A stretch of DNA of 64,000 nucleotides from a plasmid. The translations under genes were made by a program, and so were the position numbers. Positions 12,716-57,408 of the stretch are shown in pieces. Numbering within the stretch: the first letter of the stretch is position 1; each line of letters begins with the position of its first letter. The stretch lies in sequence record NZ_CP069608.1; one strand, written 5' to 3'. Below the pieces are notes generated by a model that made no database searches, was not told where the DNA came from, and was given only the letters and a program-made list of their open reading frames with translations.

Positions 12716-12825
12716 TGTAGAAAAATTGCCTATTTGTCGTCATTAAGAGTAAATATTGAAACTATTATTTTTATAAGTGACTTTATTCATTTACTCCTAT
12801 ATATAAAATACATTTATTTTTTATT
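12716..12825 (+). repeat. Repeat family copy A (~80-100 bp; core ttgtcgtca..agagtaaata.tgaaacta.tatttttat...atttact)
   Basis: Aligns with copies at 12960, 43145 (inverted) and 57320. Confidence 0.6.
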
Positions 12826-12959
12826 TTTAATAAAAATTACATTATTAAAAATACATCAACATTAAATATTTGTGAATTTTATATTTGGTTGTTACGAATA
12901 CACTAATGTCTTAAAAGGTAAATATAAGATAGATTGATATATTAAAAGAAGTGAAATAA

Positions 12960-13032
12960 CCAATTTGTCATCACTAAGTTTAAATAGTTAAACTAATTAT
13001 TTTTATGAACTACTTTACGATTTACTTAACAA
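12960..13032 (+). repeat. Repeat family copy B (slightly degenerate, with a tt insertion)
   Basis: Aligns with copies A, C and D. Confidence 0.55.
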
Positions 13033-13138
13033 AACAGACATTCTAGGAATAATTCTCTCCAAATTCTGCATGCGTTTGAATTACAAAATAGCAATGATAA
13101 AATATGAGTGTATAAGAGTATCTAGGAGTGATTAAAGT

Positions 13139-13375
13139 TTGCCTAAATTCATATGTGAAGTATGTCATCTAGAGTTCAAAAGCTATAACAAAAATGCAAA
13201 ATATTGCTCTCAATTATGTAAGGGAAAAGCTTATATTAAACATCCCGTTAAAAATTGTGTGATTTGTGGAAAAGAGTATAAACCCGTAAGAGCAACAAGT
13301 AAATTTTGTTCTCTCAAATGTTGTGCTGTAGAAAAGAAAAATAACAGCAAATCTAATACGACTTTAATTAAGTAA
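13139..13375 (+). CDS. Small Cys-rich protein with duplicated CxxC...C..LC zinc-ribbon-like modules
   Basis: 78 aa: CEVCHLEF..CSQLCKGK and CVICGKEY..CSLKCC. Confidence 0.45.
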   Translation: MPKFICEVCHLEFKSYNKNAKYCSQLCKGKAYIKHPVKNCVICGKEYKPVRATSKFCSLKCCAVEKKNNSKSNTTLIK

Positions 13376-13483
13376 AATCGTAATAAAAAGCCTGTATGTT
13401 TTATTATTCGAGAGCAATCTTATATTTGTCTATAAAGAAAGAGCAAACCTTAAGGTTTGCTCTTTTTCTATATTTATTAACTA

Positions 13484-14448
13484 TTAGGCTGTTTGAGCCA
13501 TTTTCTTCTTCATTGCCTTTCTCTTCGTTACATAACGAGCAGCAAAATAAGAGCCTACTACATAAATAACAGCTAAAGCTTGGAAAGATAATGTCTCTAC
13601 AGTAGGGAATATGCAGAACCAAACGCCTGCCCAATCAGGAAAATGAACATTAATTGTAGTTGTGCTCATCCATCCTGCAAATTGCATCTCTTGTACTGTT
13701 TCTCCTACCATTACAGCTAGAACTACTACTAAAAGAGCACCTGTAAATACCAACATTTTTTTATGAGGTAAGCGACGTTGAGCTAAGAACGTAAGAACAC
13801 CCACTACTAAAGTTAACGCTAACCCAATCAATGTTCCTTGTAGAACGATATCAGAACCTACTTTTAATCGTAAATTTTGAAGGAAAAGAACAACTTCAAA
13901 ACCTTCTCGATATACGGATGTAAGACCAAGTAGGAAAAGAGACCAGAATGCACTTTTTTCAACAGCTTCACTTTCTGTTTTCTTTCCTGTTAACTGTTGT
14001 TTTTTACGATTATGAAGTTGAATCCAACCAGTCCAATAGATCTTATGAAAGAACCAGTTCATGATAATTAGTAAAACAACTACAGCTAGAATTCCTGTGA
14101 AAGCTTGAATATCAAGCTCAGATGCACTAACAGAAGAAATAATGCCTACAACAATAAACCATGTAGCAAGTGTAGCTATAAAGGAAACTCCTGCTCCTGC
14201 AGAAATTGGTTTCCAATAATTATCTTGTTTTTTACGTACTAAACCAGAGATGATCGCTGATAATACCAAAATAGCCTCTAGCCCCTCACGAAAAACAAGG
14301 ATAGCTGTATTTAATATAGCAGCACCTGGTGTTAAATCTTTTGCAGTAGGATCAGGATTTCCCTGATAGTTAACTCCCTGCCAAACTACAACACCAATTA
14401 ATATTAGTAATGAAATAGCAATAAGAACGGTTTTAAGATTAAAAATTT
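13484..14448 (-). CDS. efeU: FTR1/EfeU family high-affinity iron permease
   Basis: Two REGxE motifs (REGLEA, REGFEV) and 7 TM. Likely TTG start at ~14448 with a ggagga RBS (the ORF track extends to 14506). Confidence 0.8.
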
Positions 14449-14490
14449 TCTTTACCAATGTGTTTTCCTCCAAAGTATGTATGTTGAAAA

Positions 14491-14505
14491 TGATAATCCT
14501 TATCA
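14491..14505. promoter_or_regulatory. Putative Fur box tgataatCcttatca (7-1-7) ~40 nt upstream of the efeU start
   Basis: Matches the Bacillus Fur 7-1-7 consensus TGATAATnATTATCA at 13/14 positions. Confidence 0.5.
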
Positions 14506-15861
14506 ATAATATCTGAATAAAGTGTATCCCTGTAGCTATCTTATGTCAAGATAATTTACGATTTACCTGATTTTTCTTACTAATTCCATTTATAACAAAC
14601 CAGTCAGTAATAATGGTAGCAAAAAAAAATAACACATTTTGATAAATGTCTTATTTTTATCTTGCTCATTCAAGTAAATATTTGAATAAAAAATAGAATG
14701 GAGTATATTATACTCAAGTAGATATTAGAATGATAAGGAGGGATTTTTGTACTAAACAAACACCATCTTTATCTAAACTACCTTATTCAACTAGAATTCT
14801 AGCAAACTCTCGACATAGACTTTTTCGATTGTCCCAATTCATTAAACAGTCTTCCTTTCTATAAATACTCAGGAAAAAATAAATTTTCTTACCATAATAA
14901 AATGTGCTTCATCTATTATTTAGAAAGGAACAAGCATACAAGAAAACAGCACATTTTACAAATAGAAAAAGAAGGTTTATTTGCTCGCGAGCAAATGGAT
15001 ACAATCTGTGGTTATAATGTTCAAGATAAAGTTTGAGTGACAGATTCAGACGGCAATCGGTGGGTATTCTTATAGTGATGCGCACAAAATTGGGTCTGAT
15101 ATAGGAGCCACTGAAAAAGCTCATAACACTAAATCTTGTTTTTAAAAACGCTCTACCAACTCATTATATACTATCCGATATAGCAAATAGATATTTTGAA
15201 GATTGTCTATTTTTTATTTGGATAATACTGAAATTAATTTTATGAAAAACAAAAAAAGAGCTGATAGTGACCCTCTATATTTAGCTAGTTTAGCTCAGTT
15301 CATACTGTAAACAGCTTAATTATAAAGGAGATAAAATAAACTCCTAGTTATTCAATTTTTCTAAAAAAAGAATCTAATTATAATATTTGACTTTTTTTGT
15401 TTACTTGCAAGCATGAATAACCCCTAATACTTTGGGAAATTAAAAAAGATGCATTGAGGCATGTATCAACTCTTATATTCTCTCATACTGTAATCGAAGA
15501 AAAAACACCTTTACTACGAGTAGGTCTTTTCTGTTTGCTGCTGTATATCATATTTATTCTTATTTTGCATAAGGAACCTTTACATAACCCATGCAAAAAA
15601 GAACTCTTCAGGATCAAGGATTATAATGAGGTTATTTTTTCTCGATTATACAGATGAACGCATTGAATACACATTTAACCAAAATATGCAATAATAACTT
15701 CCTGGTGCGATTTAGTGATTATTTTTGATTGAGTACATCACATTTCAATGGCACATTCTTCAAAATGTTTGAATAAAATAAGTATTGCATAGAATGTGGT
15801 TTAGAGAATATAATTTGCGTGTGGGCAAAATTATTTGAACTGTGCATTTTTTTGCATTTAA

Positions 15862-15881
15862 ATTTGGTTTAAGGAAACATA
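15862..15881. promoter_or_regulatory. Putative MntR operator AATTTGGTTTAAGGAAACAT upstream of mntH
   Basis: Resembles the B. subtilis mntH MntR box (TTTGCCTTAAGGAAAC-like core, recalled from memory); sits 50-70 nt upstream of the start. Confidence 0.35.
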
Positions 15882-15930
15882 TGTGTACATGGTAAAAATA
15901 AAGGATTTTAATATTTAGGAGGATATATTT

Positions 15931-17214
15931 ATGAGTAAGGATGGCGTTGTAAAAGAACAGTCCTCAACCATTCAATCTGCACAGGCTGCTCTAAGAGGTA
16001 AAACTTATGGAATTAAAAGATTATTACCTTTTCTAGGTCCTGCATTTATTGCAGCCATTGCTTACATTGATCCAGGAAACTTTGCAACAAATATCGCTGG
16101 AGGTTCAAAATATGGATACCTACTCCTATGGGTAGTACTTTTTTCTAATTTAATGGCTATTTTAATTCAATCCATGTCAGCAAAATTAGGAATTGCAACG
16201 GGTAAAAACCTGCCTGAAGTTGCTCGTGAGCAATTTCCTAAACCAGTTTCAACTGGTCTATGGATTCAAGCTGAGCTGGTCGTCATGGCTACAGATCTCG
16301 CAGAGTTTATTGGTGCGTCTTTAGGGTTATACTTACTCTTCGATATTCCTTTACTTCCTGCTGCATTAATTGCTGCGGTAGGCTCTTTTGCGATCCTTGA
16401 ACTCCAACGCCGAGGGTTCCGTTCTCTTGAAGCAGGGATTGCGGGTCTACTTTTCATTGTTGTGCTAGCATTCATTACCCAAGTCTTTTTTGCCAAACCA
16501 GAAATTAGTCCGATATTAAACGGTTTTTTTGTGCCTCAATTTAAGGGGGTAGATAGTATTTTACTTGCAGCAGGTATTCTTGGTGCAACAGTAATGCCAC
16601 ATGCAATTTACCTTCATTCTGCACTAACGCAACGTAGAATAGTGGGAAAGACGGAGGAAGATCGACGGAAAATCTTTCGCTTTGAATTTATCGATATCTT
16701 AATTGCCATGTTCATTGCAGGAGCCATTAATGCTAGTATGTTGATTGTATCTGCTGCATTGTTCTTTAAAAATGGCTTAAATGTTCAAGACTTAGATGTT
16801 GCTTTCGAGCAGTTCGATCATTTAGTTGGTCCTGCTTCAGCCATTCTCTTCGGGATTAGTCTCCTTGCTTCTGGTTTATCCAGTTCATCGGTAGGTACAA
16901 TGTCTGGTGATATTATTATGCAAGGATTTATTAATAGACGAATCCCTCTATATCTTAGAAGATTTATTACGATGATGCCACCACTTGCTATCATTGCTCT
17001 AGGCGTCAATCCAACCCATGCACTAGTCATGAGTCAGGTTGTACTGTCATTTGGGATTGCATTCGCATTAATTCCTTTGATTATGTTTACCAGCAATCGT
17101 CGTTTGATGGGCAGTTTGGTTAACCGTCGTATTACAACCATTTTTGCATGGGGTGTAGCAGCGTTAATTATTGTATTGAATGTGTTCCTTCTGTTTCAAA
17201 CGTTCTTCGGTTGA
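15931..17214 (+). CDS. mntH: NRAMP family Mn2+/Fe2+ proton-coupled transporter
   Basis: 427 aa, 11-12 TM; NRAMP signature regions (GPAFIAAIAYIDPGNFATNI). Confidence 0.9.
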   Translation: MSKDGVVKEQSSTIQSAQAALRGKTYGIKRLLPFLGPAFIAAIAYIDPGNFATNIAGGSKYGYLLLWVVLFSNLMAILIQSMSAKLGIATGKNLPEVAREQFPKPVSTGLWIQAELVVMATDLAEFIGASLGLYLLFDIPLLPAALIAAVGSFAILELQRRGFRSLEAGIAGLLFIVVLAFITQVFFAKPEISPILNGFFVPQFKGVDSILLAAGILGATVMPHAIYLHSALTQRRIVGKTEEDRRKIFRFEFIDILIAMFIAGAINASMLIVSAALFFKNGLNVQDLDVAFEQFDHLVGPASAILFGISLLASGLSSSSVGTMSGDIIMQGFINRRIPLYLRRFITMMPPLAIIALGVNPTHALVMSQVVLSFGIAFALIPLIMFTSNRRLMGSLVNRRITTIFAWGVAALIIVLNVFLLFQTFFG

Positions 17215-17434
17215 TACAATTGAAGAAAATTACAATAAATATAATGAAAAAACGATTCCCTAAATATATTAATGAAAGAATAGTTCACATAGCAGAAACT
17301 TACTAACCCAAACAAAAAACAAGTCCTTGGAGACAAGGACTTGTTTACTTTACAATCTTTATAAGAATAAATAGCTTAGGATCAAGGATAAAGAATGCAA
17401 GCCCTAGGTAATAATTGATACCTAGGGCTTTATT

Positions 17435-19024
17435 CTATTCAGGTTTATTGTTTGCATTCGGAGCTGGTGTGAAAGAAGGTTTAAAATTCTTGTATTTTAC
17501 TTCTGTAACCATTCCAGCAGAAGCATGATGTAAATCATGACAGTGAAACATCCAGTTTCCAGGATTGTCAGCCTTGAATGCTACAACGTATTCTTCACCT
17601 GGTTTAACATTTAGTGTATCTTTCATTAGTGGTGAACCTTCTATTGTCTTTCCGTTTTTACTCAACACTTGAAAGAAATGTCCATGTAAATGCATTGGAT
17701 GATCAGCTGATTTAGATGTGTTTTTCAACGTTACTTTAACTAAATCACCTTCTTTTACATTTAAAGGTTCAGTATTAGGATAGGTTCTATTGTTAATCGT
17801 ATAAACCATGCTATTATCTTTCATGGCTGTACCAAGATTCATTTTATATTCAACATCATATTTACTATCAAGAGAAAATTCACTTTTTGTAGTTTTACCA
17901 TATTTAGTGATATCTACATTTGGTAAAGATTCTTCTGGATTTAGTTTATCATTATCTTTCTTTGAGTTATCATAAACGATTTTAGCAACCATATTTTTAG
18001 CAGCATCGGTATCATCATGAGATTCAATATATGATGTACCAGGGTTATTAGCTTTGAATACTAAATCGTATCGTTCACCTGGAGAAACTGTCACCGTTTG
18101 ATCTTTTATAGTAGCAGGATTATTGATTGGTTGCCCATCTGTTGAGAGAATTTTAAATTCATATCCATGTAGGTGTATCTTATGAGAGATATATCCTGCA
18201 TTGACTAAGCGAATTTTTACTGTATCTCCTTCAGTAACTTTTAGGGTTTCCATATTATTTTCACTTTTTCCATTAATGGTATAAAGATCATACATACTCA
18301 TATCATCTTGCATATCCATATTCATATTCATTCCATCCATGCTTTCGGTTGAGTTATCTGTATCATTCTTATTTTCTTCACTTGTCATGGATCCATGGTC
18401 CATACCTTCCATGCTACTCTCACCAGACGAAATCCATTCATCTAAAACAAGTGTATAATCTTTATCTACTTTTTCTTCATTTTTTCCTTCTATAATCAGC
18501 GTTCCATATAAACCTTTGTCTATTTGATTGACGCTATCCTGATGTGAATGATACCAATATGTTCCCGGAACAGAAGCTGTAAATTCATAAGTGAATGTTT
18601 TACCTGGCTGTACAGCATTCATAGTGACTCCAGGAATCCCATCTTGACTATTTGGAACAGGAAGTCCATGCCAGTGGATTGTTACAGGTTCAGATAATTC
18701 ATTTTTTAAGTTGATTTTAACCTTATCTCCTTGTTTGACTCGAATTTGGGATCCAGGGACAGAACCATCATATGTCCAAACAGGTAATTTCGTTCCATTC
18801 CTAAAATCATGTGTAGCTTCTTTAGCAGTTAGAGTGAATTCCTTTCCTATCTTTACTTGTGTTGTTCGAGTAGAAGGGAATTTTTCTTTTTTACTTTGTT
18901 CTCCCTTGTTTGTATTATCCATGTCAGACATATCATGCCCTTTCATACTGTCTTCACTATTAGAGCAAGCAACTCCAGTCACAACTAACAATACTAAAAT
19001 TAAAGTAAGACATAACTTTTTCAC
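17435..19024 (-). CDS. Multicopper oxidase lipoprotein (copper-resistance CopA/CueO/PcoA type) with a Met-rich insert
   Basis: Lipoprotein signal LVVTGVAC; HWHG, HSH, HPMHLHGH and HCHDLHH copper-site motifs; MDGMNMNMDMQDDMSMYD Met-rich segment. Confidence 0.85.
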   Translation of the reverse strand: MKKLCLTLILVLLVVTGVACSNSEDSMKGHDMSDMDNTNKGEQSKKEKFPSTRTTQVKIGKEFTLTAKEATHDFRNGTKLPVWTYDGSVPGSQIRVKQGDKVKINLKNELSEPVTIHWHGLPVPNSQDGIPGVTMNAVQPGKTFTYEFTASVPGTYWYHSHQDSVNQIDKGLYGTLIIEGKNEEKVDKDYTLVLDEWISSGESSMEGMDHGSMTSEENKNDTDNSTESMDGMNMNMDMQDDMSMYDLYTINGKSENNMETLKVTEGDTVKIRLVNAGYISHKIHLHGYEFKILSTDGQPINNPATIKDQTVTVSPGERYDLVFKANNPGTSYIESHDDTDAAKNMVAKIVYDNSKKDNDKLNPEESLPNVDITKYGKTTKSEFSLDSKYDVEYKMNLGTAMKDNSMVYTINNRTYPNTEPLNVKEGDLVKVTLKNTSKSADHPMHLHGHFFQVLSKNGKTIEGSPLMKDTLNVKPGEEYVVAFKADNPGNWMFHCHDLHHASAGMVTEVKYKNFKPSFTPAPNANNKPE

Positions 19025-19219
19025 TACAGCACCCCCATATTAATTTAAATATGTCTACAATGTAATTTATAATTGTGCAGAATGTTTGCAGATACTGTAA
19101 ATAATTAATGGCTTACGAAATTTGTCTAAAGATAATTTTGAATTATTACCCAATCTGCACACTTTCTTCACATATTTTTTCTAAAATTTGTTGAAGGCTA
19201 AGTTAAAGGACGTGAAAAC

Positions 19220-20596
19220 ATGAATAGACTCTCATTAAAACTTGGCTTATTGTTTTTAGCTTTCATTCTATTGATTGAGGTTGGCTTATTTTTTTATCTA
19301 TATACTGGGCTAGCTGGCACGAGAATTTCAGAGGAATTAGAAAGTTTAAGACTACGAGGGAACAGTCATCGTGAGGTATTAGAGAAACACCATGATTCTG
19401 CTACCCTAAGCCATGTCGCTTTGATGGAATCAGAGGCAGAGACAGATGTAATTATTACAGATGAAGATGGAAAGATTGTACGGACTTCTAGTCCTTTAGT
19501 AAAAGGAGCTAGAGAAGCTGTAGAACAATGGCAAGGCTATTCTCTTAGGTATAAAGGGGAAATTATGCAAGGGGATTGGAAAAACAAACCCTATATTGCG
19601 ACTGCCTCTCCCATTAGACTAAACCAAAAAAACGCCGGAACTGTGTACATGTTTGAAAATACTAAAGATATACAAGACATGATAGCTAGGCTTCAACACC
19701 ATTTTTATATAGTTGGAGTTATTTCAGTGTTATTTTCAATTATCACTGTTTTTGCGCTTTCTAAATTTATAACACTCCCTCTTATAAGAATGAAACAAGC
19801 AACTCAAAAGCTTAGTCAAGGAGATTTTTCTGTAAAGCTGGGTGCACATTCAAGAGATGAATTGGGCCAGTTAGGAACATCTATTCAAACCCTTGCTAAT
19901 GAACTACATCGTTTAAAGGAAGAACGTAACGAATTTTTAAGTAGCATATCACATGAACTACAAACCCCCCTTATGTACTTAAAAGGGTATGCCGATGTAG
20001 CTAAACGCCAATCAAACAGTGAAGTGGAAAGAAATAAATACCTTAATATCATTGAAGAAGAGGCACAAAGGTTATCTCAACTAGTTAAAGATCTATTTCA
20101 ACTTGCTCAACTTGATCAACATACATTTTTAATTCAAAAACAGAATGTCAAATTATATTCCTATTTACATCATATAATTCAGCATTTTGATTTGGTCTTA
20201 AAAGAAAAGGATATTCAACTGCATTTAAATTGCCCACAAGAAATTGAGGTGAATATTGACCCTGAAAGATTCCAGCAAGTTGTTGTTAACTTGTTAGATA
20301 ATGCATTGAAGTATTCTGACAATGGAACCGAAATTTTAATAATAGTGCGAGAACTACCTAAAAAAGTTACGATTACCTTTAAAGATCAAGGAATAGGAAT
20401 TCCTTCGACCGATCTTCCTTATGTCTTTGATAAATTGTATAGAGTAGAAAAATCGCGCTCAAGGAAAAGTGGAGGTTATGGTTTAGGATTATCTATTGTA
20501 AAAGAAATTGTGGAATCTCATGGAGGCGCAGTCACAATAGAAAGTGGGGTAGGAAAAGGCACTATGGTTGAAATCTTGTTAAGAGAGGATGTTTAG
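19220..20596 (+). CDS. Two-component sensor histidine kinase (2 TM, HAMP, HisKA SHELQTPL, HATPase)
   Basis: 458 aa; domain order read from motifs; divergent from the multicopper oxidase. Confidence 0.85.
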   Translation: MNRLSLKLGLLFLAFILLIEVGLFFYLYTGLAGTRISEELESLRLRGNSHREVLEKHHDSATLSHVALMESEAETDVIITDEDGKIVRTSSPLVKGAREAVEQWQGYSLRYKGEIMQGDWKNKPYIATASPIRLNQKNAGTVYMFENTKDIQDMIARLQHHFYIVGVISVLFSIITVFALSKFITLPLIRMKQATQKLSQGDFSVKLGAHSRDELGQLGTSIQTLANELHRLKEERNEFLSSISHELQTPLMYLKGYADVAKRQSNSEVERNKYLNIIEEEAQRLSQLVKDLFQLAQLDQHTFLIQKQNVKLYSYLHHIIQHFDLVLKEKDIQLHLNCPQEIEVNIDPERFQQVVVNLLDNALKYSDNGTEILIIVRELPKKVTITFKDQGIGIPSTDLPYVFDKLYRVEKSRSRKSGGYGLGLSIVKEIVESHGGAVTIESGVGKGTMVEILLREDV

Positions 20597-21278
20597 AATG
20601 CCAACTATTTTGTTAGTTGATGATGAATCAAGGATGTTAGATCTACTTGAACTTTATCTTACTCCAAATGGTTTTATATGTATTAAATTTGATTCTGGTA
20701 TTGAGGCATTAAACTATCTAGAAGAAGGAAATGAAGCTGATTTAATGCTCTTGGATATTATGATGCCCGATAAAGATGGATGGGAGATATGTCATGAAGT
20801 TAGAAGTAGTTCCAAAATTCCAGTAATAATGCTAACCGCACGTAATCAAACCATTGATATAATAAAGGGTTTGAATACAGGAGCTGATGATTATATCGTT
20901 AAACCCTTTAGTGAAGGAGAACTGATTGCTCGCCTTAGAGCAGTATTAAGGAGAGTTTCAACAGAAAATGAGGAGATTAACTATAAAGGATTATTATGGA
21001 GTCGAGAAAATCACCTGTTAAAATATGAAGATCAGGAAATACAAGTGACTCCAAAAGAATTTAAATTAGTAGGATTGCTCTTACAATACCCAAATAGAGT
21101 GTTTAGTCGTGAAGATTTATTAACCTCAGTATGGGGATACGATGCTGAAATTGAAGGAAGAACAATTGATTCACATGTGCGAAATGTAAGAGATAAACTA
21201 CGTAAAGCAAACTTTCCTGTAGATGACCACCTTCAAACTGTGTGGGGGCTAGGCTATAAATGGGTAGACAGCAATTAA
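20589..21278 (+). CDS. OmpR-family response regulator (receiver + winged helix)
   Basis: 229 aa; LLVDDE receiver start; overlaps the kinase stop. Confidence 0.9.
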   Translation: MFRMPTILLVDDESRMLDLLELYLTPNGFICIKFDSGIEALNYLEEGNEADLMLLDIMMPDKDGWEICHEVRSSSKIPVIMLTARNQTIDIIKGLNTGADDYIVKPFSEGELIARLRAVLRRVSTENEEINYKGLLWSRENHLLKYEDQEIQVTPKEFKLVGLLLQYPNRVFSREDLLTSVWGYDAEIEGRTIDSHVRNVRDKLRKANFPVDDHLQTVWGLGYKWVDSN

Positions 21279-21826
21279 AGCAAGTTGTTGTTGAGTGGTT
21301 ATCTACCAATGAACTTATAGCCATATTAATTAGTCTATCCCTTAACATTGTCATAAGTATTTTAGGCATTGTACCTAGTGTATTTCTTACAGCTGCAAAC
21401 TTGAAAATATTTGGTTTTTGGGAAGGGACTATCATTTCATTTTTAGGAGAAGTTATAGGAACAAGTGTATCTTTTTGGTTATATAAAAAGGGATTTAAAT
21501 CAGTTTTAAGAAACAAGACGCAGAATCAACCTAAACTAGATAAACTCTTATCAACTACAGGAAAAGATGCTTTTTCTCTAGTTATAGGCCTGCGCTTATT
21601 ACCTTTTACACCTTCTGGATTGGTTACATTCCTTGCTGCTGTTGGAAATATGAGCTTTTCAATATTTTTCTTAGCCAGTACATTAGGAAAAATCCCTGCC
21701 ATAGTCTTAGAATCCTATTCAACATATCAAGTGGTGAACTTAACGTTAGAAGGAAAAGTAATTTTAGCAGGGTTAGCGTTGATTTTAATTCTTTATGCCG
21801 TAAGGCGTAAAAAAACGAACAAATAA
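21260..21826 (+). CDS. DedA/TVP38/TMEM64 family membrane protein, overlapping the response regulator stop
   Basis: 188 aa; SNARE-associated-like signature FGFWEGTIISFLGEVIGTSVSFWLYKKG. Confidence 0.65.
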   Translation: MGRQQLKQVVVEWLSTNELIAILISLSLNIVISILGIVPSVFLTAANLKIFGFWEGTIISFLGEVIGTSVSFWLYKKGFKSVLRNKTQNQPKLDKLLSTTGKDAFSLVIGLRLLPFTPSGLVTFLAAVGNMSFSIFFLASTLGKIPAIVLESYSTYQVVNLTLEGKVILAGLALILILYAVRRKKTNK

Positions 21827-21940
21827 AATATTATTGCTCCCTAGTCTAACAGAATAACTCTCACAATCTTTTTTGCTTATTGCAAGGGTATTCATTAATT
21901 TTTTTTAAAAAAGGGCATTTAACCCTTCGCATAGGGTACA

Positions 21941-21962
21941 GGGGTACCGTATAATATAATTA
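21941..21962. promoter_or_regulatory. Putative CsoR operator: GC-rich pseudo-palindrome ATAGGGTACAGGGGTACCGTAT abutting a tataat -10
   Basis: ATAccc..ggggTAT-type dyad directly upstream of csoR. Confidence 0.4.
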
Positions 21963-21979
21963 TGAAAGGAGGAAATTAA

Positions 21980-22312
21980 ATGGATGAATTAGAAAAAATC
22001 ACTGACAATGATAGTTGTTGTTCTATAAATAATGAACGTAGAAGTCATCACTCTCCAGAAGTGAAGAAAAACCTAACTAGTAGATTGAATCGCATAGAAG
22101 GACAAATTCGAGGGATTAAAGGATTAATTGAGAAAGATACTTATTGTGACGATATAATTACTCAAATTGCAGCCGTACAATCTGCTTTAAACGGTGTAAG
22201 TAAGATATTACTTGAAGGACACCTTAAACATTGTATAGTTGAGCGTGTTCAAGAAGGAGATAAAGAAGTAGTAGATGAATTATTGACAACAATTAAACGA
22301 CTAATGAAATAA
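21980..22312 (+). CDS. csoR: CsoR family copper-sensing transcriptional repressor
   Basis: 110 aa; LNRIEGQIRGI...YCDDI...HLKHC (C-H-C copper ligands). Confidence 0.85.
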   Translation: MDELEKITDNDSCCSINNERRSHHSPEVKKNLTSRLNRIEGQIRGIKGLIEKDTYCDDIITQIAAVQSALNGVSKILLEGHLKHCIVERVQEGDKEVVDELLTTIKRLMK

Positions 22313-22320
22313 AAAAGGAG

Positions 22321-22536
22321 ATGTTAAGAATGGAAAAAGTAACGTTAACAGTTAAAGGAATGTCTTGTGGTCATTGTGTGAAATCTATTGAAGGAAGTGT
22401 TGGTGAACTTAACGGTGTACAACATGTAGAGGTAAATCTAAATGAAGCAAAGGTGTCCGTTGAATTTGATCAAAACAAAGTATCGTTAGAATCAATTAAA
22501 GAAGATATTGATGACCAAGGTTATGAAGTAGCCTAA
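22321..22536 (+). CDS. copZ: Copper chaperone CopZ (HMA domain)
   Basis: 71 aa; GMSCGHCV metal-binding motif. Confidence 0.9.
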   Translation: MLRMEKVTLTVKGMSCGHCVKSIEGSVGELNGVQHVEVNLNEAKVSVEFDQNKVSLESIKEDIDDQGYEVA

Positions 22537-22617
22537 ATAAAATAGCGTGCGAATACTTCCGCACGCTTCCTTTAGGAATTGAATATACCTAATAGGGGTA
22601 TAATAGGAGGTTATAAA

Positions 22618-25035
22618 ATGAGCGAACAGCAAAAAGAAACCACTTTACAAATTAGTGGCATGACCTGTGCAGCTTGTGCAAACCGTATCGAAAAAGGATT
22701 AAAGAAAATTGATGGTGTTCAGGATGCTAACGTAAATTTTGCATTAGAAAGATCAACCATTGTTTATGATCCATCAAAAACAACTACTCAAGATTTTGAA
22801 CAAAAAATTCAAAAATTAGGTTATGACATTGTAAATGAAAAAGATGAATTTAGTATTACAGGCATGACTTGCGCAGCTTGTGCAAACCGAATTGAAAAAG
22901 GCTTGAATAAATTAGAGGGAGTCTCAAAGGCCACAGTCAATTTCGCATTAGAAACAGCAACAGTAGAATATACCCCCTCCCAGGTAAGCACAACAGAAAT
23001 GATTCAGCGAGTAGAAAAACTGGGATATGGAGCTATATTAAAGTCAGAAGAAAAAGAAGAAAATCTTAATCATCGAGAGAAAGAAATTGAAAAACAAAAA
23101 GGGAAGTTTTGGTTTTCACTTATTCTAAGTTTCCCTCTGTTATGGGCAATGGTTAGTCACTTTTCATTTACTTCGTTTATTCCACTACCCGCCATGTTAA
23201 TGAACCCATGGGTTCAATTAACTCTAGCAACTCCAGTACAGTTTATTGTAGGTAAACAATTTTACGTAGGTGCTTTCAAAGCACTCCGTAATAAAAGCGC
23301 AAATATGGATGTTCTCGTCGCCCTGGGAACCAGTGCAGCATATTTCTATAGTTTATATGTTTCAATTAAATCAATAGGCTCAAACGCTCCTATGATTGAA
23401 CTATATTATGAAACAAGTGCCGTATTACTCACACTTATTATATTAGGTAAATTATTTGAAGCAAATGCTAAGGGACGTTCTTCTGAGGCTATCAAAAAAC
23501 TTATGGGTTTACAGGCAAAAACAGCAACTGTTTTACGAAATGGTGAGGAAGTTGAGATTCCCATTGAAGAAGTACAATCAGGAGATATTGTTTATGTAAA
23601 ACCTGGTGAAAAGGTACCTGTGGATGGGGAAATTGTAGAAGGTCAATCAGCCTTAGATGAATCCATGTTAACAGGAGAAAGTGTTCCAGTAGACAAAACC
23701 ATTGGAGATGCAGTCATTGGAGCAACAATCAATAAAAATGGATTTTTAAAAGTAAAAGCGACAAAAGTCGGAAGAGACACAGCTTTAGCACAAATTATTA
23801 AAGTAGTGGAAGAAGCTCAGGGTTCAAAAGCACCTATTCAACGATTAGCTGACCAAATTTCCGGCATATTTGTTCCAATTGTAGTTGGTATTGCAATTGT
23901 AACCTTTTTAATTTGGTATATCTGGGTTCAACCAGGTGATTTTGCTTTAGCACTAGAAAAATTAATTGCCGTATTAGTAATTGCTTGTCCATGTGCATTA
24001 GGGTTAGCAACTCCAACTTCTATTATGGCAGGATCAGGTCGTGCAGCAGAGTTTGGTATTTTATTTAAAGGTGGAGAACACTTAGAAACTACTCATAAAA
24101 TCAATACCATTATCTTAGATAAAACAGGTACAGTCACAAACGGTACTCCTGAATTGACCGACGTATTTGTATCAAGTGGAATTGAAAATCAGGAGTTTTT
24201 AGAGTTAGTAGGTTCAGCTGAACGACAGTCTGAGCACCCTCTTGCTCAAGCAATTGTTGAAGGCATAAAGGTAAAAGGAATTAAGCTTGTTAGTCCTTCA
24301 TCGTTTGAAGCTATTCCTGGTTTTGGGATTAAAGCTGTTGTAAATGAGAAAGAGTTATTAGTTGGAACACGTAAATTAATGAACCAGAATAATATCCAAA
24401 TTGATAATGATTTAAAAAAAATGATTGAGTTAGAACGTGAAGGAAAAACAGCCATGCTGGTTGCTATTAATGGTCAATACGCAGGATTAATTGCTGTAGC
24501 TGATACCATCAAAGAAACTTCGAAAGAAGCTGTCACTCGATTAAAAGAGATGGGTTTAGAAGTCATTATGATTACGGGTGATAATAAGCAAACTGCCCAA
24601 GCAATTGCTCAGCAAGTAGGTATTGAACATGTCATTGCTGAGGTATTGCCTGAAGGAAAAGCTGAGGAAGTGAAAAAACTCCAACATCAAGGTAAAAAAG
24701 TAGCGATGGTTGGAGACGGCATTAATGATGCACCTGCTTTAGCATTAGCTGATATCGGAATGGCCATTGGTACCGGTACAGATGTGGCGATGGAGGCTGC
24801 TGATATTACCTTAATGCGTGGTGATTTAAACAGTATTGCTGATGCGATCTTTATGAGTAAAAAGACAATCCAAAATATTAAACAAAATTTATTTTGGGCA
24901 TTTGGGTATAACACACTAGGTATACCGATTGCTGCGATTGGTTTATTAGCTCCTTGGTTAGCAGGCGCAGCAATGGCCTTTAGTTCTGTTTCTGTCGTTC
25001 TGAATGCACTAAGATTGCAAAGAGTGAAATTATAA
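22618..25035 (+). CDS. copA: Copper-translocating P1B-type ATPase CopA
   Basis: Two N-terminal [18 protein letters not shown] domains; CPC, DKTGT and GDGINDAP motifs. Start taken at MSEQQ with a ggagg RBS (the ORF track starts at 22579). Confidence 0.95.
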
Positions 25036-25049
25036 AGGAGTGTAAGGAA

Positions 25050-25214
25050 ATGAAAAAATGGATTGTTTCAGCTGTTTTATATCTCCTTATTGTTATAGCT
25101 GCTTATGCTATTTGGGCGAGTTTCAATGAGAGTCCAAAGAATGAACACCAAAATCATCAATCGATCTCTTATCCTACGCCGATTGAAAAAAGTTATAACA
25201 TTAGGGTGCGATAG
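25050..25214 (+). CDS. 54 aa single-TM protein immediately after copA (not in the ORF track)
   Basis: ATG with aaaggagtgtaagg RBS; MKKWIVSAVLYLLIVIAAYAIWASF... Confidence 0.35.
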   Translation: MKKWIVSAVLYLLIVIAAYAIWASFNESPKNEHQNHQSISYPTPIEKSYNIRVR

Positions 25215-25216
25215 AG

Positions 25217-25546
25217 ATGGATATGCAGGGAGTACAAAAACATGTGTTAATCTGTAATGGAAAAAGCTGCGTCAAGAATGGTGGAGAACAAGTCGCAGAA
25301 GCGATTCGTGATGAGATAAAGAAAAGTGGTTGTACTAAATTTATTCATACAACTAAGACGTTATGTAACGGTCAGTGTAAAAATGGAGCTATTACAATTC
25401 TGTATCCTGATGGTATCTGGTATAAAGAAATGGACGAAGACTCTGGAAGGAAGCTTATTAAAGAGATAAACACTCCCATTCCTTTAGAGCAAAAGATCCT
25501 ATTGGACTATAAAAACCACCAATTTACTGAAAAGAAAACAGAATAG
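25217..25546 (+). CDS. Thioredoxin-like [2Fe-2S] ferredoxin family protein
   Basis: 109 aa with four spaced Cys (CNGKSC...C...CNGQC). Confidence 0.5.
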   Translation: MDMQGVQKHVLICNGKSCVKNGGEQVAEAIRDEIKKSGCTKFIHTTKTLCNGQCKNGAITILYPDGIWYKEMDEDSGRKLIKEINTPIPLEQKILLDYKNHQFTEKKTE

Positions 25547-25874
25547 CAAAAAGAGTTTAGCTTTTCTTTAGCTAAACTCTTTTTCTATACAGCTAAGGTA
25601 ACAAATTTTCACGAAAAAAGGAAGTCTAACAGAATAATCTAATTATCTTCAAACTTTCTCTACAGTTTCATGGTTTAAATATTAAGATTATCGTTCTTTT
25701 ATTATGTTTCTAAAATTATTAGGTCATTCTATAAGGTGAAATTATTTAATTCTCACTAAAACTGCACAAAAACTGCACAAAATTTATTTATGCTAAAGAA
25801 ATAAAGTAATAGGAAAGTTTCTCATTTATACCATTGTTTTATTAAAGAGCGAATTCTATTGCTCAGAAAGAGGG

Positions 25875-26447
25875 ATGAAAATGAAAAAACAACTTTTTAT
25901 TCTTGGAGTAGCAACAATTATAGGGCTGAGTGGTTGTGGAAATAATTCCAGCAATGATGATCAATCAAGTAATAAAAAGGAGTCAAATCAATCAGAGATG
26001 GATCACTCCAAGATGAATCATTCCGGTTCAAGCGAGGTTCCTGAAGGTTTACAAGAAGCGAAGAACCCAACATATAAGTTGGGAAGCGAAGCAACTATTA
26101 AAGCAGATCACATGAAAGGTATGAACGGTGCTAAAGCGACAATTGTTGGGGCTTATGATACTACAGTTTATACAGTTTCTTATACACCAACTACTGGTGG
26201 AGAAAAAGTAGCAAATCATAAATGGGTCATTCAAGAAGAAATTAAGGACGCTGATGATAAAACGTTAAAGCCAGGAACTGAAGTTACTCTAGAAGCAGAT
26301 CACATGGAAGGTATGAAAGGCGCAAAAGCAACAATTGACTCAGCTGAAAAAACTACTGTATATATGGTTGATTACACACCAACTACTGGTGGAGAAAAGG
26401 TAACAAATCATAAATGGGTTACAGAAAATGAACTTTCTGCTAAATAA
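25875..26447 (+). CDS. Lipoprotein with two DUF1541 (YdhK-like) domains
   Basis: Lipobox LSGC; internal duplication DHMKGMNGAKATIVGAYDTTVYTVSYTPTTGGEKVANHKWV / DHMEGMKGAKATIDSAEKTTVYMVDYTPTTGGEKVTNHKWV. Confidence 0.75.
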   Translation: MKMKKQLFILGVATIIGLSGCGNNSSNDDQSSNKKESNQSEMDHSKMNHSGSSEVPEGLQEAKNPTYKLGSEATIKADHMKGMNGAKATIVGAYDTTVYTVSYTPTTGGEKVANHKWVIQEEIKDADDKTLKPGTEVTLEADHMEGMKGAKATIDSAEKTTVYMVDYTPTTGGEKVTNHKWVTENELSAK

Positions 26448-26613
26448 AGCAAGCCTAGAGATTATTCAATAATGCAATTAAAATATATTACGTAGGTAAT
26501 ACCTCTGAAACATATAGATTTCAGAGGTATTCTTTTCACCCTATATATTTTTAATTTAAAAATAAAAGGAGGAATAGCCATTTGCCATTTCTCCCTTTAT
26601 AGGTAGCAATTTT

Positions 26614-26943
26614 TTAAGATGCTAATTTCCTACATTCTTCTGCGCATTTCAAACAAGCATCTGCGCACTTTTGACAGTGTTCATGGTCATGTTTTTTACA
26701 CACGTTTCCACATGCTTCACAAATTTGAGCGCATGCCTGAGCTAATTCAGAGACAAAGGGTGTTCCTCTCCCTAAAGCTTGTTCCAAATACGCACAAATA
26801 TCTGCGCACTCACGGTCAAGGCGAATACATTCAACCATCATATTTACATTTTCTTCTTTTAAACATGCATCATAACAATGATTACATGCAGTCATACATT
26901 CATGTAACGTTTGAATAACAAATTGATAGTTTTCATGTGACAA
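26614..26943 (-). CDS. Cys-rich four-helix-bundle copper-binding protein (DUF326, Csp3-like copper storage protein)
   Basis: 109 aa, ~18 Cys in CxxxC heptad-like spacing. Confidence 0.7.
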   Translation of the reverse strand: MSHENYQFVIQTLHECMTACNHCYDACLKEENVNMMVECIRLDRECADICAYLEQALGRGTPFVSELAQACAQICEACGNVCKKHDHEHCQKCADACLKCAEECRKLAS

Positions 26944-39935: not shown

Positions 39936-39937
39936 AA

Positions 39938-43235: not shown

Positions 43236-43790
43236 CAAATATTAAAGTGTTTATAAAGACAATGTTTTATCATTTACTTAAAGGTATGGATATCCCATTG
43301 ATTTTATTTTTGTGGTTTATATAATTACTCAATCTTTCTCTTTGACGGATATATTCTTCAAGGATAGCATTTTAGACTATAATTTCTATAAGTATAAATC
43401 TTAACTGTGATAGAGTAAAAGCATGAAAAAGACCATCTTAATCGATGGCCTCTTTCGTAAATTTATTGGTATACTTTTACGAACTCTAAAGTCGATTCTG
43501 TTTCAAAACGTTAAATGAAAAATCCGCAATTTTCAGGAAAAAGAACATCAAATATAAGTATTTAATATGCAGAGAAATGCTCTCTGAGGAAATTAACTTC
43601 TTTTTTAAATATGGACCCGATAATTCGATGCAAATTTCAGTGCAACTATAAAATGAGGCAATATTTGTTTTTTAATGCAGAAAAATCTTCTCTAGTGCAA
43701 TTGTCTTTTAGTTCTCATCTCATTTACATTACTTAGAGCAATATAAAAAAGGGACGCAGAATAATACTACGTCACTTTTAATTGCATCAT

Positions 43791-56022: not shown

Positions 56023-56417
56023 AAGCATGCACCTTTAATGGTGCATGCTTTTACCGTTATCCCTCTCTATTTATTTGTTCTTTTTTACATGTAATAAGAA
56101 AATATGAAGGATACACCTTTTATATATAAGTATTGTTAACGCTCTTACACAGAAAGTTGATAAATCAAGGATGTATAAAAAGCTGCATACTCTATAAAAA
56201 TCACCCACTTGGACCCTTCATCCCATGAGGATTCTTTTACCTTCTTGCTTCCTTGAAAATCTACTATGTTAACTAAAATTGAAAATAACATATTGTCTAT
56301 AAAGATAAATTACTTTTTGTACGTCCATAAAGGTTAATTCTATTGACTAAATAGACATTTTGTTATTTGATTCTACATAGTCCAAAAAGGTGTACCTTTT
56401 GGGACTAGCTATACAAA

Positions 56418-56452
56418 AAAAGATCGTTGCTACATAGCAACGATCTTTTTCG
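56418..56452 (+). terminator. Rho-independent terminator (aaagatcgttgcta/tagcaacgatcttt + T-run)
   Basis: Read directly. Confidence 0.5.
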
Positions 56453-56716
56453 AACTCGATTAGATGATTAGGTTGATGCATAGCATAACATGCCATCTAA
56501 GCATTTAACAACCTTAAATATTTGTATAAGCAATATAAATATTTAATAAGTTGATGATATAATAATTTCAAACTAGGAATTACATGTAGGTGCTTCTGTG
56601 GAAAGGGACCACCTTTTTTAATCAAAGTATCAAATCATTTAATCTTCAATTCAAAAAGGCATTTGCGCTATTTTGAATTTGTATAAGCATGATAAAGAAA
56701 GTTAGGATGATTAATT

Positions 56717-56932
56717 GTGTTTAAGTCCATATGGTGTACTTTAGAAAATGAAACGCAGGAAATGATTCTTATTATCTCTCCGGTAGTGATTTTGGGAATT
56801 ATCGCCCTTCTAAATATACATCCTTTAGTAACAATAGCATGCACCTTATTAGCAGGCTTATATGGTGGTATATTCTTTGCAGTAAATCTGATTAGAGAGT
56901 TTATAAATAAACTGAAGGGCAATTTTAAATAA
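56717..56932 (+). CDS. Small 2-TM membrane protein
   Basis: 71 aa. Confidence 0.35.
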   Translation: MFKSIWCTLENETQEMILIISPVVILGIIALLNIHPLVTIACTLLAGLYGGIFFAVNLIREFINKLKGNFK

Positions 56933-56966
56933 AATAAGAAAAAAGGCATAAGAAAGGAAACCATTA

Positions 56967-57218
56967 ATGATACCCATTTCAATGGAAGCATATGTGAATA
57001 AGCATTGCAAGAATAATCCTGGAGAAGAACCAAACCAGTTAAGGGAAAGTTTAAAACAGGCAGTTAAAGATAAGAAAAATGGAGCGATCTGCATCAACTG
57101 CGGTCAGGAAATTTGGGCGATTGGCAGTGCTATCGCTTATCAAGGATGTTTTTCGTGTTTAACTGGGGAGGTGGATTCCTCGGAAGACTATGAGATCGAT
57201 GAGGTGTGTTGGTCATAG
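56967..57218 (+). CDS. Small Cys-containing protein (CxxC...CxxC zinc-ribbon-like)
   Basis: 83 aa: CINCGQEI...CFSC. Confidence 0.4.
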   Translation: MIPISMEAYVNKHCKNNPGEEPNQLRESLKQAVKDKKNGAICINCGQEIWAIGSAIAYQGCFSCLTGEVDSSEDYEIDEVCWS

Positions 57219-57319
57219 ATTTAAAAATACCTATTTGGGCCCCAAATAATAATAAAAAAAATACCCTGAAGGAGTTAATTGAAGAAATTTCTATGCTTAG
57301 GCAAGAGGTATAAATATAT

Positions 57320-57408
57320 CCTACTTGTCGTCAGGTAGAGTAAATAATGAAACTAATTATTTTTATGGAATACTTCACGATTTACTTAATATAAAATACG
57401 TTATCGGC
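57320..57408 (+). repeat. Repeat family copy C
   Basis: cctacttgtcgtcaggtagagtaaataatgaaactaattatttttatggaatacttcacgatttacttaatataaaatacgttat aligns with copies A, B and D. Confidence 0.6.

Follow-up and report, generated by a model that had tools for sequence, protein, structure and literature searches.

Four copies of a non-coding repeat in the window, the 64,000-nt stretch of plasmid DNA analyzed here (NZ_CP069608.1), are probably orphan recombination sites of a plasmid-borne, Xer-like tyrosine recombinase, acting as points of module exchange. The preliminary description of this DNA had left the choice between a MITE-like element and a recombination site. The second is favored by a strain junction at one copy (D), by a tyrosine recombinase gene adjacent to the repeat on other plasmids, and by blocks of homology that end at the repeat core, while a MITE is not supported. 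The proposed link of the repeat to the recombinase draws on this adjacency and on the junction patterns.

A single cell of Priestia megaterium or one of its relatives can contain as many as ten large plasmids, with metal-resistance, germination, and metabolic genes, and the literature searched contained no description of how these plasmids are reshuffled. If the repeats are live recombination sites, they would explain the mosaic structure of Priestia plasmids, predict where resistance modules move, and supply a compact recombinase/site pair for Bacillus-type hosts as a possible genetic tool. Under any reading, close to a hundred sequenced plasmids carry a recurrent ~200-bp element that has no annotation at present.

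Copies and anatomy of the repeat unit

The window holds exactly four copies (A, B, C, and D) of a ~200-bp non-coding unit. A profile that excluded the window sequence and drew on 47 copies from other genomes recovered only these four (E = 2e-34, 2e-28, 2e-22, and 3e-21), the next window match lying at E = 0.01. The pattern TTGTCRTCANNWANNNTAAANNNTNAAACT likewise gave exactly four matches in the window and none in 100 dinucleotide-preserving shuffles, even with two mismatches allowed. Pattern, shuffles, and profile thus bear out the four locations first reported, and the tgtagaaaaa common to A and D was confirmed, as was the tataaaatac tail common to A and C. At about 160–210 nt, the homologous unit exceeds the 80–100 bp originally noted, and the gagtaaat...atttact inverted repeat ascribed to every copy is found in A, C, and D but is degenerate in B. 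The features are as follows.

12674..12882, + strand: copy A, full unit (other-genome profile, E = 2e-34)
12715-12725, + strand: copy A left arm, ttgtagaaaaa
12726-12730, + strand: copy A spacer, ttgcc
12731-12742, + strand: copy A right arm, tatttgtcgtca
12749-12762 / 12781-12794, + strand: copy A downstream palindrome, gtaaatattgaaac / ctttattcatttac
12907..13100, + strand: copy B, right-half unit (other-genome profile)
12962-12973, + strand: copy B right arm, aatttgtcatca
13139-13375: 78-aa Cys-rich ORF after copy B
13101..43117, no strand: segment bounded by the downstream sides of B and D, which face inward
43118..43274, − strand: copy D, full unit, inverted (other-genome profile)
43202-43213: copy D right arm, + strand letters tgacgacaaata
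43214-43218: copy D spacer, + strand letters tgggc
43219-43229: copy D left arm, + strand letters tttttctacaa
57281..57441, + strand: copy C, right-half unit (other-genome profile)
57322-57333, + strand: copy C right arm, tacttgtcgtca
~57410-57450: hairpin with terminator-like features 3′ of copy C (read from the sequence)

Two palindromes flank the core of the unit: GTAATAGTTAAC..GTTAACTATTAC on its upstream side and, downstream, GTAAATnnTAAAAC and GTTTTAnnATTTAC separated by about 18 nt. In Priestia, the core comprises TAGAAAAA, a 5-nt G+C-rich spacer, and TATTTGTCGTCA, giving the form TAGAAAAA-N5-TATTTGTC, with arms that are weakly inverted (5 of 8 positions). Some 30 columns are at least 90% conserved in an alignment of 56 copies, in which the spacer takes 42 different sequences and has 54% G+C against 23% for the unit. 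Highly conserved core arms therefore enclose an unconserved spacer, the arm-spacer-arm organization of a tyrosine-recombinase site, and the conservation pattern fits a protein-bound core. Within the window, A has the spacer TTGCC and D the spacer GCCCA, a mismatch that would hinder exchange by a tyrosine recombinase that requires homology.

Two classes can be told apart among the window copies: the full units A and D, and the copies B and C, which are without the upstream palindrome and the left arm TAGAAAAA. Copy A has its upstream palindrome, and the AT-rich spacer at its end runs into copy B. A and B are a single tandem pair (period 231 nt) of a kind seen again in other genomes. Both right-half units have the downstream palindrome; B carries agtgaaat in place of the left arm, and C has no TAGAAAA left arm. 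Such right-half hybrids make up 19 of the 56 aligned copies; a search for reciprocal left-half hybrid sites found none. The flanks of C are identical in every related strain seen. Copies B and C lie ~1290 nt downstream of two ltaS paralogues, and we considered and rejected an ancient ltaS duplication as the origin of this near-equal offset; the intervening DNA is not homologous, so the offset looks coincidental. A conserved ORF within the unit was also rejected, in line with the preliminary description: all forward frames are stopped in several copies, the copies differ by indels, and the proteins encoded upstream of different copies are unrelated.

It is very improbable that the unit encodes or forms part of a small RNA or 5′ leader, with the gagtaaat...atttactc stem as an RNA helix. 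A promoter-like TGGTATATT precedes B-type copies, a TGnTATAnT-like motif sits just 5′ of right-half copies, a terminator-like hairpin follows several of them, C included (both read from the sequence), and a small ORF with a ribosome-binding site follows B. Promoter and terminator scans, however, returned counts no better than in shuffled sequence, with no more promoter sites than in shuffles. Folding energies equaled those of shuffles on both strands (z −0.84 to +0.27). The 16-pair stem was 77.2% paired across 56 copies and 77.2% paired in shuffles, 240 of 500 shuffles being as high, and its covariation score (0.093 vs 0.091) was matched by 208 of 500. The folding and covariation checks that had been suggested were therefore negative, and a structured RNA was rejected on the grounds of no covariation, no folding excess, and no Rfam match on the copies. 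Searches of the window at the Rfam gathering threshold and of 11600-13200 at E up to 10, the latter covering A and B, returned only the group II intron and chance miRNA-like matches. The chance matches fall on an unrelated hairpin at 12311-12362.

Strain junctions and the metal-resistance cluster

Copy D is a demonstrated strain-to-strain junction and the sole such junction among the four window copies. On the rnj side, from 55458 down to TTTGTCGTCA of D, the window shares 99.9% identity with two related loci (L001 and L003); all three diverge inside D just after TTTGTCGTCA, from ~43201 leftwards. Past this break, each strain has its own ~75%-identical remainder of the unit and then unrelated genes, the sister-strain cargo comprising a Tn3-family transposase or PLD/SIR2 genes. 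Other pairs of loci (L040/L062, L043/L044, and L050/L062) share only the DNA downstream of the core, and in L062 a unit is fused 37 codons into the double-HTH gene, right after a pseudo-arm, GGAAAA. Internal homology endpoints fell inside units in 10 of 44 cases against 1.9 expected, a count that comes from loci chosen for containing repeats and represents only about five independent events. Some breaks, in L018/L046/L048, lie at the 3′ end of the unit and not at the core. Among the available strains, we saw no inversion, excision variants, circles, or reciprocal products. Taken as patterns, the junction and the homology breaks are indirect evidence that DNA may be exchanged at the core.

Resistance genes for copper, manganese/iron, and arsenic occupy the segment between B and D, together with a group II intron (~40620-42988). 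Its gene content agrees with the first reading: FTR1, Nramp, a multicopper oxidase, a two-component system, a CopA-type ATPase, DUF1541, a BlaI/BlaR-like pair, arsRBCDA, Acr3, and the intron. The flanking ltaS and rnj, described earlier as core genes, are not chromosomal core here, the replicon being a ~141-kb circular plasmid (CP180491.1). The further proposal that the cluster was mobilized between B and D as a single unit finds no support in a related genome, GCA_964210545.1, which differs from the window immediately beyond D and retains A, B, and the left cluster at 99.98–100% identity. In that assembly, window positions 8913-13436 lie on one contig and 13467-22458 were read on another, which from its size should reach ~29.9 kb; 9 kb of the left cluster was thus read and up to 16 kb is expected. 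The contigs break at a hairpin (13436/13467) and, judging from contig size, inside an ORF near 29.9 kb. Because this genome differs at D yet keeps the left cluster, a single B-to-D cassette is not supported. The strain comparison shows a right module boundary at D; no left boundary of the exchanged segment was located, and in GCA_964210545.1 A/B do not form it.

These comparisons also bear on the proposal that the unit is a non-autonomous, MITE-like element that inserts in intergenic DNA, each copy marking an insertion. The unit is short, non-coding, AT-rich, present in several copies per replicon, and confined to one genus, it has internal inverted repeats, and its position is intergenic and often 3′ of a co-oriented gene. 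The inverted repeats, however, are internal palindromes only, with none between the unit ends in alignments of 53–56 copies, and no target-site duplication or filled/empty site pair was found for A–D among the related strains compared. Homology between copies often extends far past one end only, into neighboring genes, and copies occur in tandem same-orientation arrays with a 230–265 nt period. No transposase is consistently linked to the unit; the linked gene encodes a tyrosine recombinase. We regard the MITE-like reading as improbable.

A linked recombinase and double-HTH gene

Eight Priestia loci with a gene for a 382-aa Xer-like tyrosine recombinase, or with its remnant, were checked, and in each of them it adjoins a copy of the unit. 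These comprise four fetched plasmids (pBM400, NZ_CP045274, NZ_CP065336, and NZ_CP040366 of P. flexa) and four loci from a genome scan (L049, L040, L020, and L050, the last with a recombinase pseudogene). In every such locus with an intact far side, a double-HTH gene follows. The unit points away from the recombinase gene, at a distance of ~260 nt from its start. In this home setting, the recombinase gene and the divergent HTH gene are separated by a gap of ~480 nt, half of which is filled by the unit, ending at the HTH promoter; the downstream palindrome sits just upstream of that gene's promoter-like TGATATAAT. The recombinase matches Pfam Phage_integrase at 1.4e-17, and its best solved relative is XerD (3e-11), followed by XerA, IntI4, and XerH. 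It occurs in 53 Priestia plasmids, as a single copy in all but one. The HTH product has ~325 aa and two HTH_17 domains, with no solved homologue. Two roles for it were rejected: as a replication initiator acting on the unit as origin, since the annotated replication protein gene of pBM400 is ~39 kb away, and as part of a TubZ/TubR partition system, since a TubZ/TubR neighborhood occurs in pBM400 only and is absent from the other three plasmids.

The pairing of site and recombinase extends to Bacillus. A B. subtilis plasmid carries TAGAAAAA-tcgcc-TATTTGTC beside a 58%-identical recombinase, a B. amyloliquefaciens plasmid TTGTAGAAAAA-gtgcc-TATTTGTC beside a 54%-identical one, and a B. thuringiensis plasmid, whose recombinase is 38% identical, a perfect inverted repeat, ATAGAAAAT-ctccc-ATTTTCTAT, of 9 bp around a 5-nt spacer. 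For one B. cereus homologue (37% identity), no recognizable core was found. The downstream palindrome differs in sequence from that of Priestia in both B. subtilis-group plasmids examined; between Priestia and B. subtilis, it changes along with the HTH protein (44% identity), and the core does not. A putative cognate recombinase stands beside the site in 8 of 8 Priestia loci and three Bacillus plasmids, and in the window and 10 kb on either side there is no homologue of the recombinase or of the HTH protein and no fifth copy. The 10 kb past each window end hold only cytochrome oxidase genes and a MobL-type mobilization region.

The units might instead be arrays of operators or binding sites for the double-HTH or another DNA-binding protein, with a regulatory or architectural role (silencing, pairing, or centromere-like), the recombinase being incidental and the junctions ordinary homologous exchange at conserved sequence. 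We consider this unlikely, though less so than the RNA and MITE-like readings. Both palindromes are conserved and symmetric, as for dimeric binding, the downstream one abuts the HTH promoter in the home copy and varies with the HTH protein while the core stays constant, and in L052 the HTH gene and a unit remain together with no recombinase gene. Such arrays would nevertheless leave two things unexplained: an arm-spacer-arm core that is conserved along with the recombinase from one genus to another and has full palindromic symmetry in B. thuringiensis, and the joining of unrelated DNA exactly at that core. Identical stretches between copies, moreover, reach at most ~25–30 nt, which is short for RecA-dependent exchange.

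Under the favored reading of the repeats as recombination sites, the recombinase would bind the two imperfectly inverted core arms, and strands would be exchanged in or next to the spacer. The palindromes may serve as operators or accessory sites, bound by the HTH protein or by an N-terminal extension of the recombinase. Exchange between sites on co-resident plasmids would swap the DNA downstream of the core. A and D could then be full sites, inverted to each other, on the ltaS and rnj backbone, with B and C as right-half hybrids resulting from exchange with pseudo-sites; the point where the ars/intron module was swapped for other cargo in sister plasmids would be D. The recombinase serving the window sites would need to act in trans or be encoded in the ~57 kb of the plasmid beyond the window and its 10-kb flanks.

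Known site-specific systems and distribution of the family

Resolution sites beside a recombinase gene are familiar from Cre/loxP of P1, ResD/rfsF of F, and TnpI/IRS of the Bacillus thuringiensis transposon Tn4430; XerCD acts at cer/psi on a site with accessory sequences, and the IRS of Tn4430 measures 116 bp. The Priestia plasmids resemble these in having one recombinase gene each, with a site in its upstream intergenic region whose core places a short spacer between two inverted arms. Accessory motifs on the flanks bring that site to ~200 bp, comparable to cer/psi and the IRS, and the B. subtilis-group plasmids have one site each, as expected of a resolution site. Unlike resolution sites, the Priestia site is multiplied to 1–4 or more copies, mostly far from the recombinase gene, and is always paired with a dedicated double-HTH gene; protein and site match no characterized system in sequence, the nearest solved relative being XerD at E = 3e-11.

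The pdif sites of Acinetobacter are bare 28-bp XerC/XerD sites served by chromosomal Xer proteins; often inverted, they bound accessory modules that include metal and antibiotic resistance, a role inferred from plasmid homology breakpoints. Priestia plasmids are similar in that several Xer-type sites are scattered over them, with discrete accessory modules, inverted orientation, and a role drawn from breakpoints. They differ in that the unit is ~200 bp, with two palindromes and its own single plasmid-borne recombinase and HTH partner, and in that, of the four copies in the window, only D is shown to bound a module. An Acinetobacter-type pdif site was rejected on the basis of this length and of the linkage to a plasmid-borne recombinase. 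Compared by eye, the core is also unlike the B. subtilis dif sequence.

Integrons offer a third parallel. As with attI/attC, a tyrosine recombinase gene and a promoter-bearing primary site are divergently arranged, and further imperfect-palindrome sites in the same orientation lie downstream, one or a few genes apart (L020, with the order int, unit, gene, unit, genes, unit). The likeness extends to hybrid sites at secondary sites and to the group II intron that, on other Priestia plasmids, adjoins the 3′ end of a right-half unit. An integron with an IntI-type integrase was nevertheless rejected: the NCBIfam integron-integrase models score the recombinase at 47 and 18.5 bits, far below their cut-offs of 265 and 435, and are outscored by Xer models, yet these too fall below their own cut-offs. 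Unlike attC, the Priestia palindrome arms are conserved in sequence and not in structure alone, copies stand in both orientations tens of kilobases apart, and single-stranded substrates find no support in this family.

More tentatively, and with rather less confidence than in the orphan-site reading of the four repeats, we propose that Priestia plasmids may run a module-exchange system of their own. It would consist of an Xer-like recombinase, a ~200-bp composite site, and dozens of orphan full and half sites, with accessory blocks such as the arsenic module swapped between co-resident plasmids. Such a system would stand as the Gram-positive equivalent of pdif modules or of integrons, served by its own recombinase together with a double-HTH protein as partner. 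If true, a resolution-type site that is single-copy in B. subtilis plasmids would have expanded into a dispersed exchange network in one genus.

A search of the literature on the repeat, or on this recombinase system in Bacillus/Priestia plasmids, found nothing relevant. In PLSDB, the family occurs at 125 places in 94 plasmid records, all from Priestia and none annotated. Across GTDB species genomes, the core pattern was found in 37 stretches. Records from Priestia or close Bacillus sp. account for 35, mostly on plasmid-sized records, with a few chromosomal copies in Priestia; the other two resemble contamination or chance. A Priestia replicon carries 1–4 or more dispersed copies, which may face either way or stand in tandem, and the majority lie far from any recombinase gene, whereas the B. 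subtilis-group plasmids have exactly one site. The recombinase and its proposed site are typical of Priestia plasmids typed rep_cluster_385. The units are intergenic and often lie downstream of a co-oriented gene, and on other Priestia plasmids a group II intron is found exactly at the 3′ end of a right-half unit.

The four copies and their family

A preliminary description had reported four related repeats in this stretch; all four are present at those positions and clearly related, although the homologous unit, at ~160–210 nt, is longer than was then seen. A profile built from 47 copies, all from other genomes, detected exactly four copies in the window, with the next match reaching only E = 0.01:

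12675-12882, + strand: copy A (E = 2e-34)
12920-13056, + strand: copy B (E = 3e-21)
43273-43121, − strand: copy D (E = 2e-28)
57317-57440, + strand: copy C (E = 2e-22)

A 30-nt pattern, TTGTCRTCANNWANNNTAAANNNTNAAACT, fits every copy; it has four matches in the window, and 100 dinucleotide-preserving shuffles yielded zero, also when two mismatches were tolerated. Together, the profile and shuffle results rule out chance AT-rich similarity. Tandems of the A–B type (same-orientation pairs or triplets, 230–265 nt period) recur in many loci. Alignment of 53–56 distinct copies, in which ~30 columns are at least 90% conserved, gave the anatomy of the unit.

Elements of the repeat unit, from upstream to downstream
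Upstream palindrome: GTAATAGTTAAC..GTTAACTATTAC
Left core arm, downstream of that palindrome: TTGTAGAAAAA
Core spacer: 5 unconserved nt between TTGTAGAAAAA and TATTTGTCGTCA
Right core arm: TATTTGTCGTCA, then 3 poorly conserved nt
Downstream palindrome, after those 3 nt: GTAAATnnTAAAAC, ~18 nt, GTTTTAnnATTTAC

Full units number 37, A and D among them, and 19 copies, including B and C, are right-half units that run from TATTTGTCGTCA onward only; a search for left-half hybrids, their reciprocal, found none. Among 56 copies, the spacer takes 42 distinct forms; its G+C content is 54%, compared with 23% for the unit. Using copy C as a blastn query against PLSDB, we recovered 125 places on 94 plasmids, all from Priestia and none with the repeat annotated. 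The core pattern matched 37 stretches in a one-genome-per-species collection (GTDB). Of these, 35 belong to Priestia or closely related "Bacillus sp." genomes; most lie on records of plasmid size, and a few are chromosomal. The remaining two matches, one on a Sphingomonas contig and one in a Peribacteria MAG, appear to reflect contamination or chance.

The suggestion of a structured RNA was not borne out, as the copies have no Rfam match and their folding energies equal those of shuffles on both strands. Covariation in the gagtaaat...atttactc stem, extended to 16 pairs, scored 0.093 versus 0.091 in shuffles, with 77.2% of cells paired in either set. This inverted repeat consists of two sequence-conserved arms, as would be expected for a symmetric protein-binding site. 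Stops and indels exclude a conserved ORF through the copies, as previously noted, and with it a conserved coding sequence in the unit. A MITE-like element had also been proposed; no terminal inverted repeats, target duplication, or empty site was seen, and one-sided homology between copies, commonly extending into neighboring genes, speaks against it.

Homology junctions at the core

RNase J is identical among contigs that represent three or more plasmid variants. Two of these, L001 (an ENA metagenome assembly) and L003 (GCA_964210545.1), match the window at 99.9% identity from 55458 leftward into copy D, and all three agree through TTTGTAGAAAAAG.CCATATTTGTCGTCA of D, bar one spacer base in L001. 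Beyond that point, the remainder of the unit differs in each (~75% identity), and the genes that come next are unrelated: the window continues with the group II intron and ars genes, L001 with a Tn3-family transposase and resolvase, and L003 with PLD-, SIR2- and Y-family-polymerase-type genes. An assembly mis-join at D is unlikely, because the stretch that different copies share falls short of the k-mer lengths normally used in assembly.

Independent pairs of loci from other genomes (L040/L062, L043/L044, and L050/L062) are unrelated upstream and 94–99% identical from the core onward. In L062, the unit is joined to codon 37 of a gene for a double-HTH_17 protein (HTH gene), immediately behind GGAAAA, which resembles the left arm, and the family similarity of right-half copies ends at the same point. 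The D variants, one-sided pairs, L062 join, and right-half copies place the putative exchange point at or just beside the spacer. In Priestia loci, internal homology endpoints fell inside units in 10 of 44 cases against 1.9 expected (binomial p = 1.4e-5), a count representing only ~5 independent events at loci selected for having repeats; some homology breaks fall at the 3′ end of the unit, not at the core.

By comparison of plasmid variants, D is a demonstrated junction between strains and a probable exchange point. The flanks of A, B, and C are identical in all related strains available. Movement of the cluster as one B-to-D block, as had been suggested, is not supported: GCA_964210545.1 differs just beyond D yet keeps the left part. 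Up to 13436, a span that takes in A, B, and the Cys-rich ORF, its identity to the window is 99.98%. A second contig begins at 13467 and matches the window at 100% across 8,992 bases (to 22458); at 16,458 bp, that contig should reach ~29.9 kb of the window. We sought the left end of the segment replaced beyond D in this assembly and did not find it.

A linked Xer-like recombinase

In L049, a locus from the genome scan, a 382-aa tyrosine recombinase gene lies ~260 nt from the unit and divergent from it, and an ~325-aa protein with two HTH_17 domains begins directly after the unit. L040, L020, and L050 have the recombinase or its remnant equally far from the unit. All four fetched Priestia plasmids, including pBM400 (strain QM B1551), have divergent HTH and recombinase genes ~476–480 nt apart, with the unit as the HTH-proximal half of the gap; the end of this home unit abuts a promoter-like motif, TATGATATAAT, and the ribosome-binding site of the HTH gene. 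By tblastn, the recombinase occurs in 53 Priestia plasmids (84–99.7% identity; single in all but one), with homologues at <60% identity in ~550 plasmids of other Bacillaceae. We class it as Xer-like by similarity: its best solved relative is XerD (3e-11), and the XerA, XerC, and XerD family models score highest, yet below their cut-offs. No solved or named relative of the HTH protein was found, and a role as replication protein was rejected, the annotated replication protein gene of pBM400 lying ~39 kb away. A search of the window and of 10 kb on each side of it found no homologue of either gene and no fifth unit.

Intergenic cores beside recombinase homologues on other Bacillus plasmids (identities to the Priestia proteins)
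B. subtilis: recombinase 58%, HTH 44%; TAGAAAAA-tcgcc-TATTTGTC, then a different palindrome, GTTTAATC..GATTAAAC
B. amyloliquefaciens: recombinase 54%; TTGTAGAAAAA-gtgcc-TATTTGTC, then another, different palindrome
B. thuringiensis: recombinase 38%; ATAGAAAAT-ctccc-ATTTTCTAT, a perfect inverted repeat around 5 nt
B. cereus: recombinase 37%; no obvious core in the intergenic region

The arms stay constant with the recombinase while the palindrome varies with the HTH protein, which suggests a division of labor: the recombinase would act at the core, and the palindromes would serve as accessory sites or operators. The site is single-copy in B. subtilis-group plasmids; dispersed orphan copies are a Priestia feature.

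We favor, with moderate confidence, the reading that the units are recombination sites of the Xer-like recombinase. The enzyme would bind the two core arms, with strand exchange at the spacer; the palindromes may recruit the HTH protein or the ~90-residue N-terminal extension of the recombinase, and inter-plasmid exchange at units would swap downstream cargo. The chief alternative is an array that serves purely as binding sites or operators. Spacer sequences vary widely, and A and D have different ones, which should hinder homology-dependent exchange. Orphan units are well conserved. The unit has the anatomy of a tyrosine-recombinase site. For the recombination-site reading, the closest kinds are resolution sites beside tyrosine recombinase genes (loxP, rfsF, Tn4430 IRS, and cer/psi with accessory arms), then Acinetobacter pdif modules and, more loosely, integron arrays. 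The units belong to neither of the last two: pdif sites are bare 28-bp sequences on which the chromosomal XerCD proteins act, and integrons are defined by an IntI-type integrase. No description of the repeat or of the recombinase/HTH pair was found in searchable literature.

The window and its surroundings

Copies A and D, both full sites, are inverted relative to each other: upstream, each faces the backbone with ltaS and rnj, and downstream, the metal-resistance segment. The hybrid right-half sites are B and C. The genes lying between B and D are those first described, whereas ltaS and rnj, then called core genes, belong to the plasmid backbone and not to the chromosomal core. Exact-protein look-ups placed ltaS, rnj, and the cluster on CP180491.1 (140,904 bp), a record shown to be circular by the way the window wraps across its start, and on a contig of 137,641 bp from a second assembly. 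Since non-coding DNA around A is ~90% identical to Priestia megaterium plasmids and the repeat family, within PLSDB, is confined to Priestia, the window represents a large Priestia-type plasmid. The window is flanked on its left by a complete set of cytochrome oxidase genes (COX1-4, CtaA) and on its right by a MobL-type relaxase region (L080-L084), which make the replicon chromid-like and probably mobilizable.

Other features of the window
6433-8912: IS21-family element; IstA 7232-8821 (−), IstB 6477-7235 (−)
9607-11679 and 54064-56022: LtaS-type sulfatase paralogues, ~70–76% nucleotide identity over parts, 44.5 kb apart
12311-12362 and 12636-12676: two perfect AT-rich hairpins upstream of A; arms aaataagcatgtatctta/taagatacatgcttattt and gtataacattaatttt/aaaattaatgttatac
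13139-13375 (+): Cys-rich 78-aa ORF directly 3′ of B; several CxxC-type pairs, good ribosome-binding site, no Pfam match, no exact match in the protein index
~40620-42988 (+): group II intron; RT/maturase 41199-42884, Rfam domain V-VI 42911-42988
46942-48983 and 49384-51430: ~2-kb tandem segmental duplication (~78% identity), each duplicate with a SulP-family transporter and universal stress protein
51530-52075: serine resolvase gene, following the duplication
61119 to beyond 64000 (−): three genes resembling a Tn554-type or recombinase-trio element, inserted beside a YkuD gene

Sister plasmids lack the IS21 element, 6432 joining 8913 with a 5-bp overlap (the target duplication); CP180491.1 carries more IS21-family copies at window ~12267-12271 and 13161-13165, amid A and B. 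The ~530 nt upstream of A (12151-12716) are ~90% identical to intergenic DNA beside an HU gene on P. megaterium plasmid NZ_CP137804.1, which suggests a larger conserved non-coding block. Copies B and C each lie ~1290 nt downstream of one ltaS paralogue, an arrangement that looks coincidental, as the intervening DNA is not homologous.

The intron is inserted ~25 nt past a terminator-like hairpin and has ~90%-identical copies on many Priestia plasmids. In NZ_CP035095.1 (P. megaterium ATCC 14581; locus L074, 5280-5480), its 3′ end directly adjoins the final base of an oppositely oriented right-half unit (...ATTTACTTA); the window intron lies 130 nt from D in the same relative orientation. The trio-like element encodes a DUF6262 protein (61119-61523) and two tyrosine recombinases, one of 711 aa (61507-63642) and, past the window end on sister contigs, one of 389 aa. 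It is absent from loci L057 and L058, where the mobilization region (Mrr, Toprim, ArdC) directly follows, and present in the window, L054, and L056.
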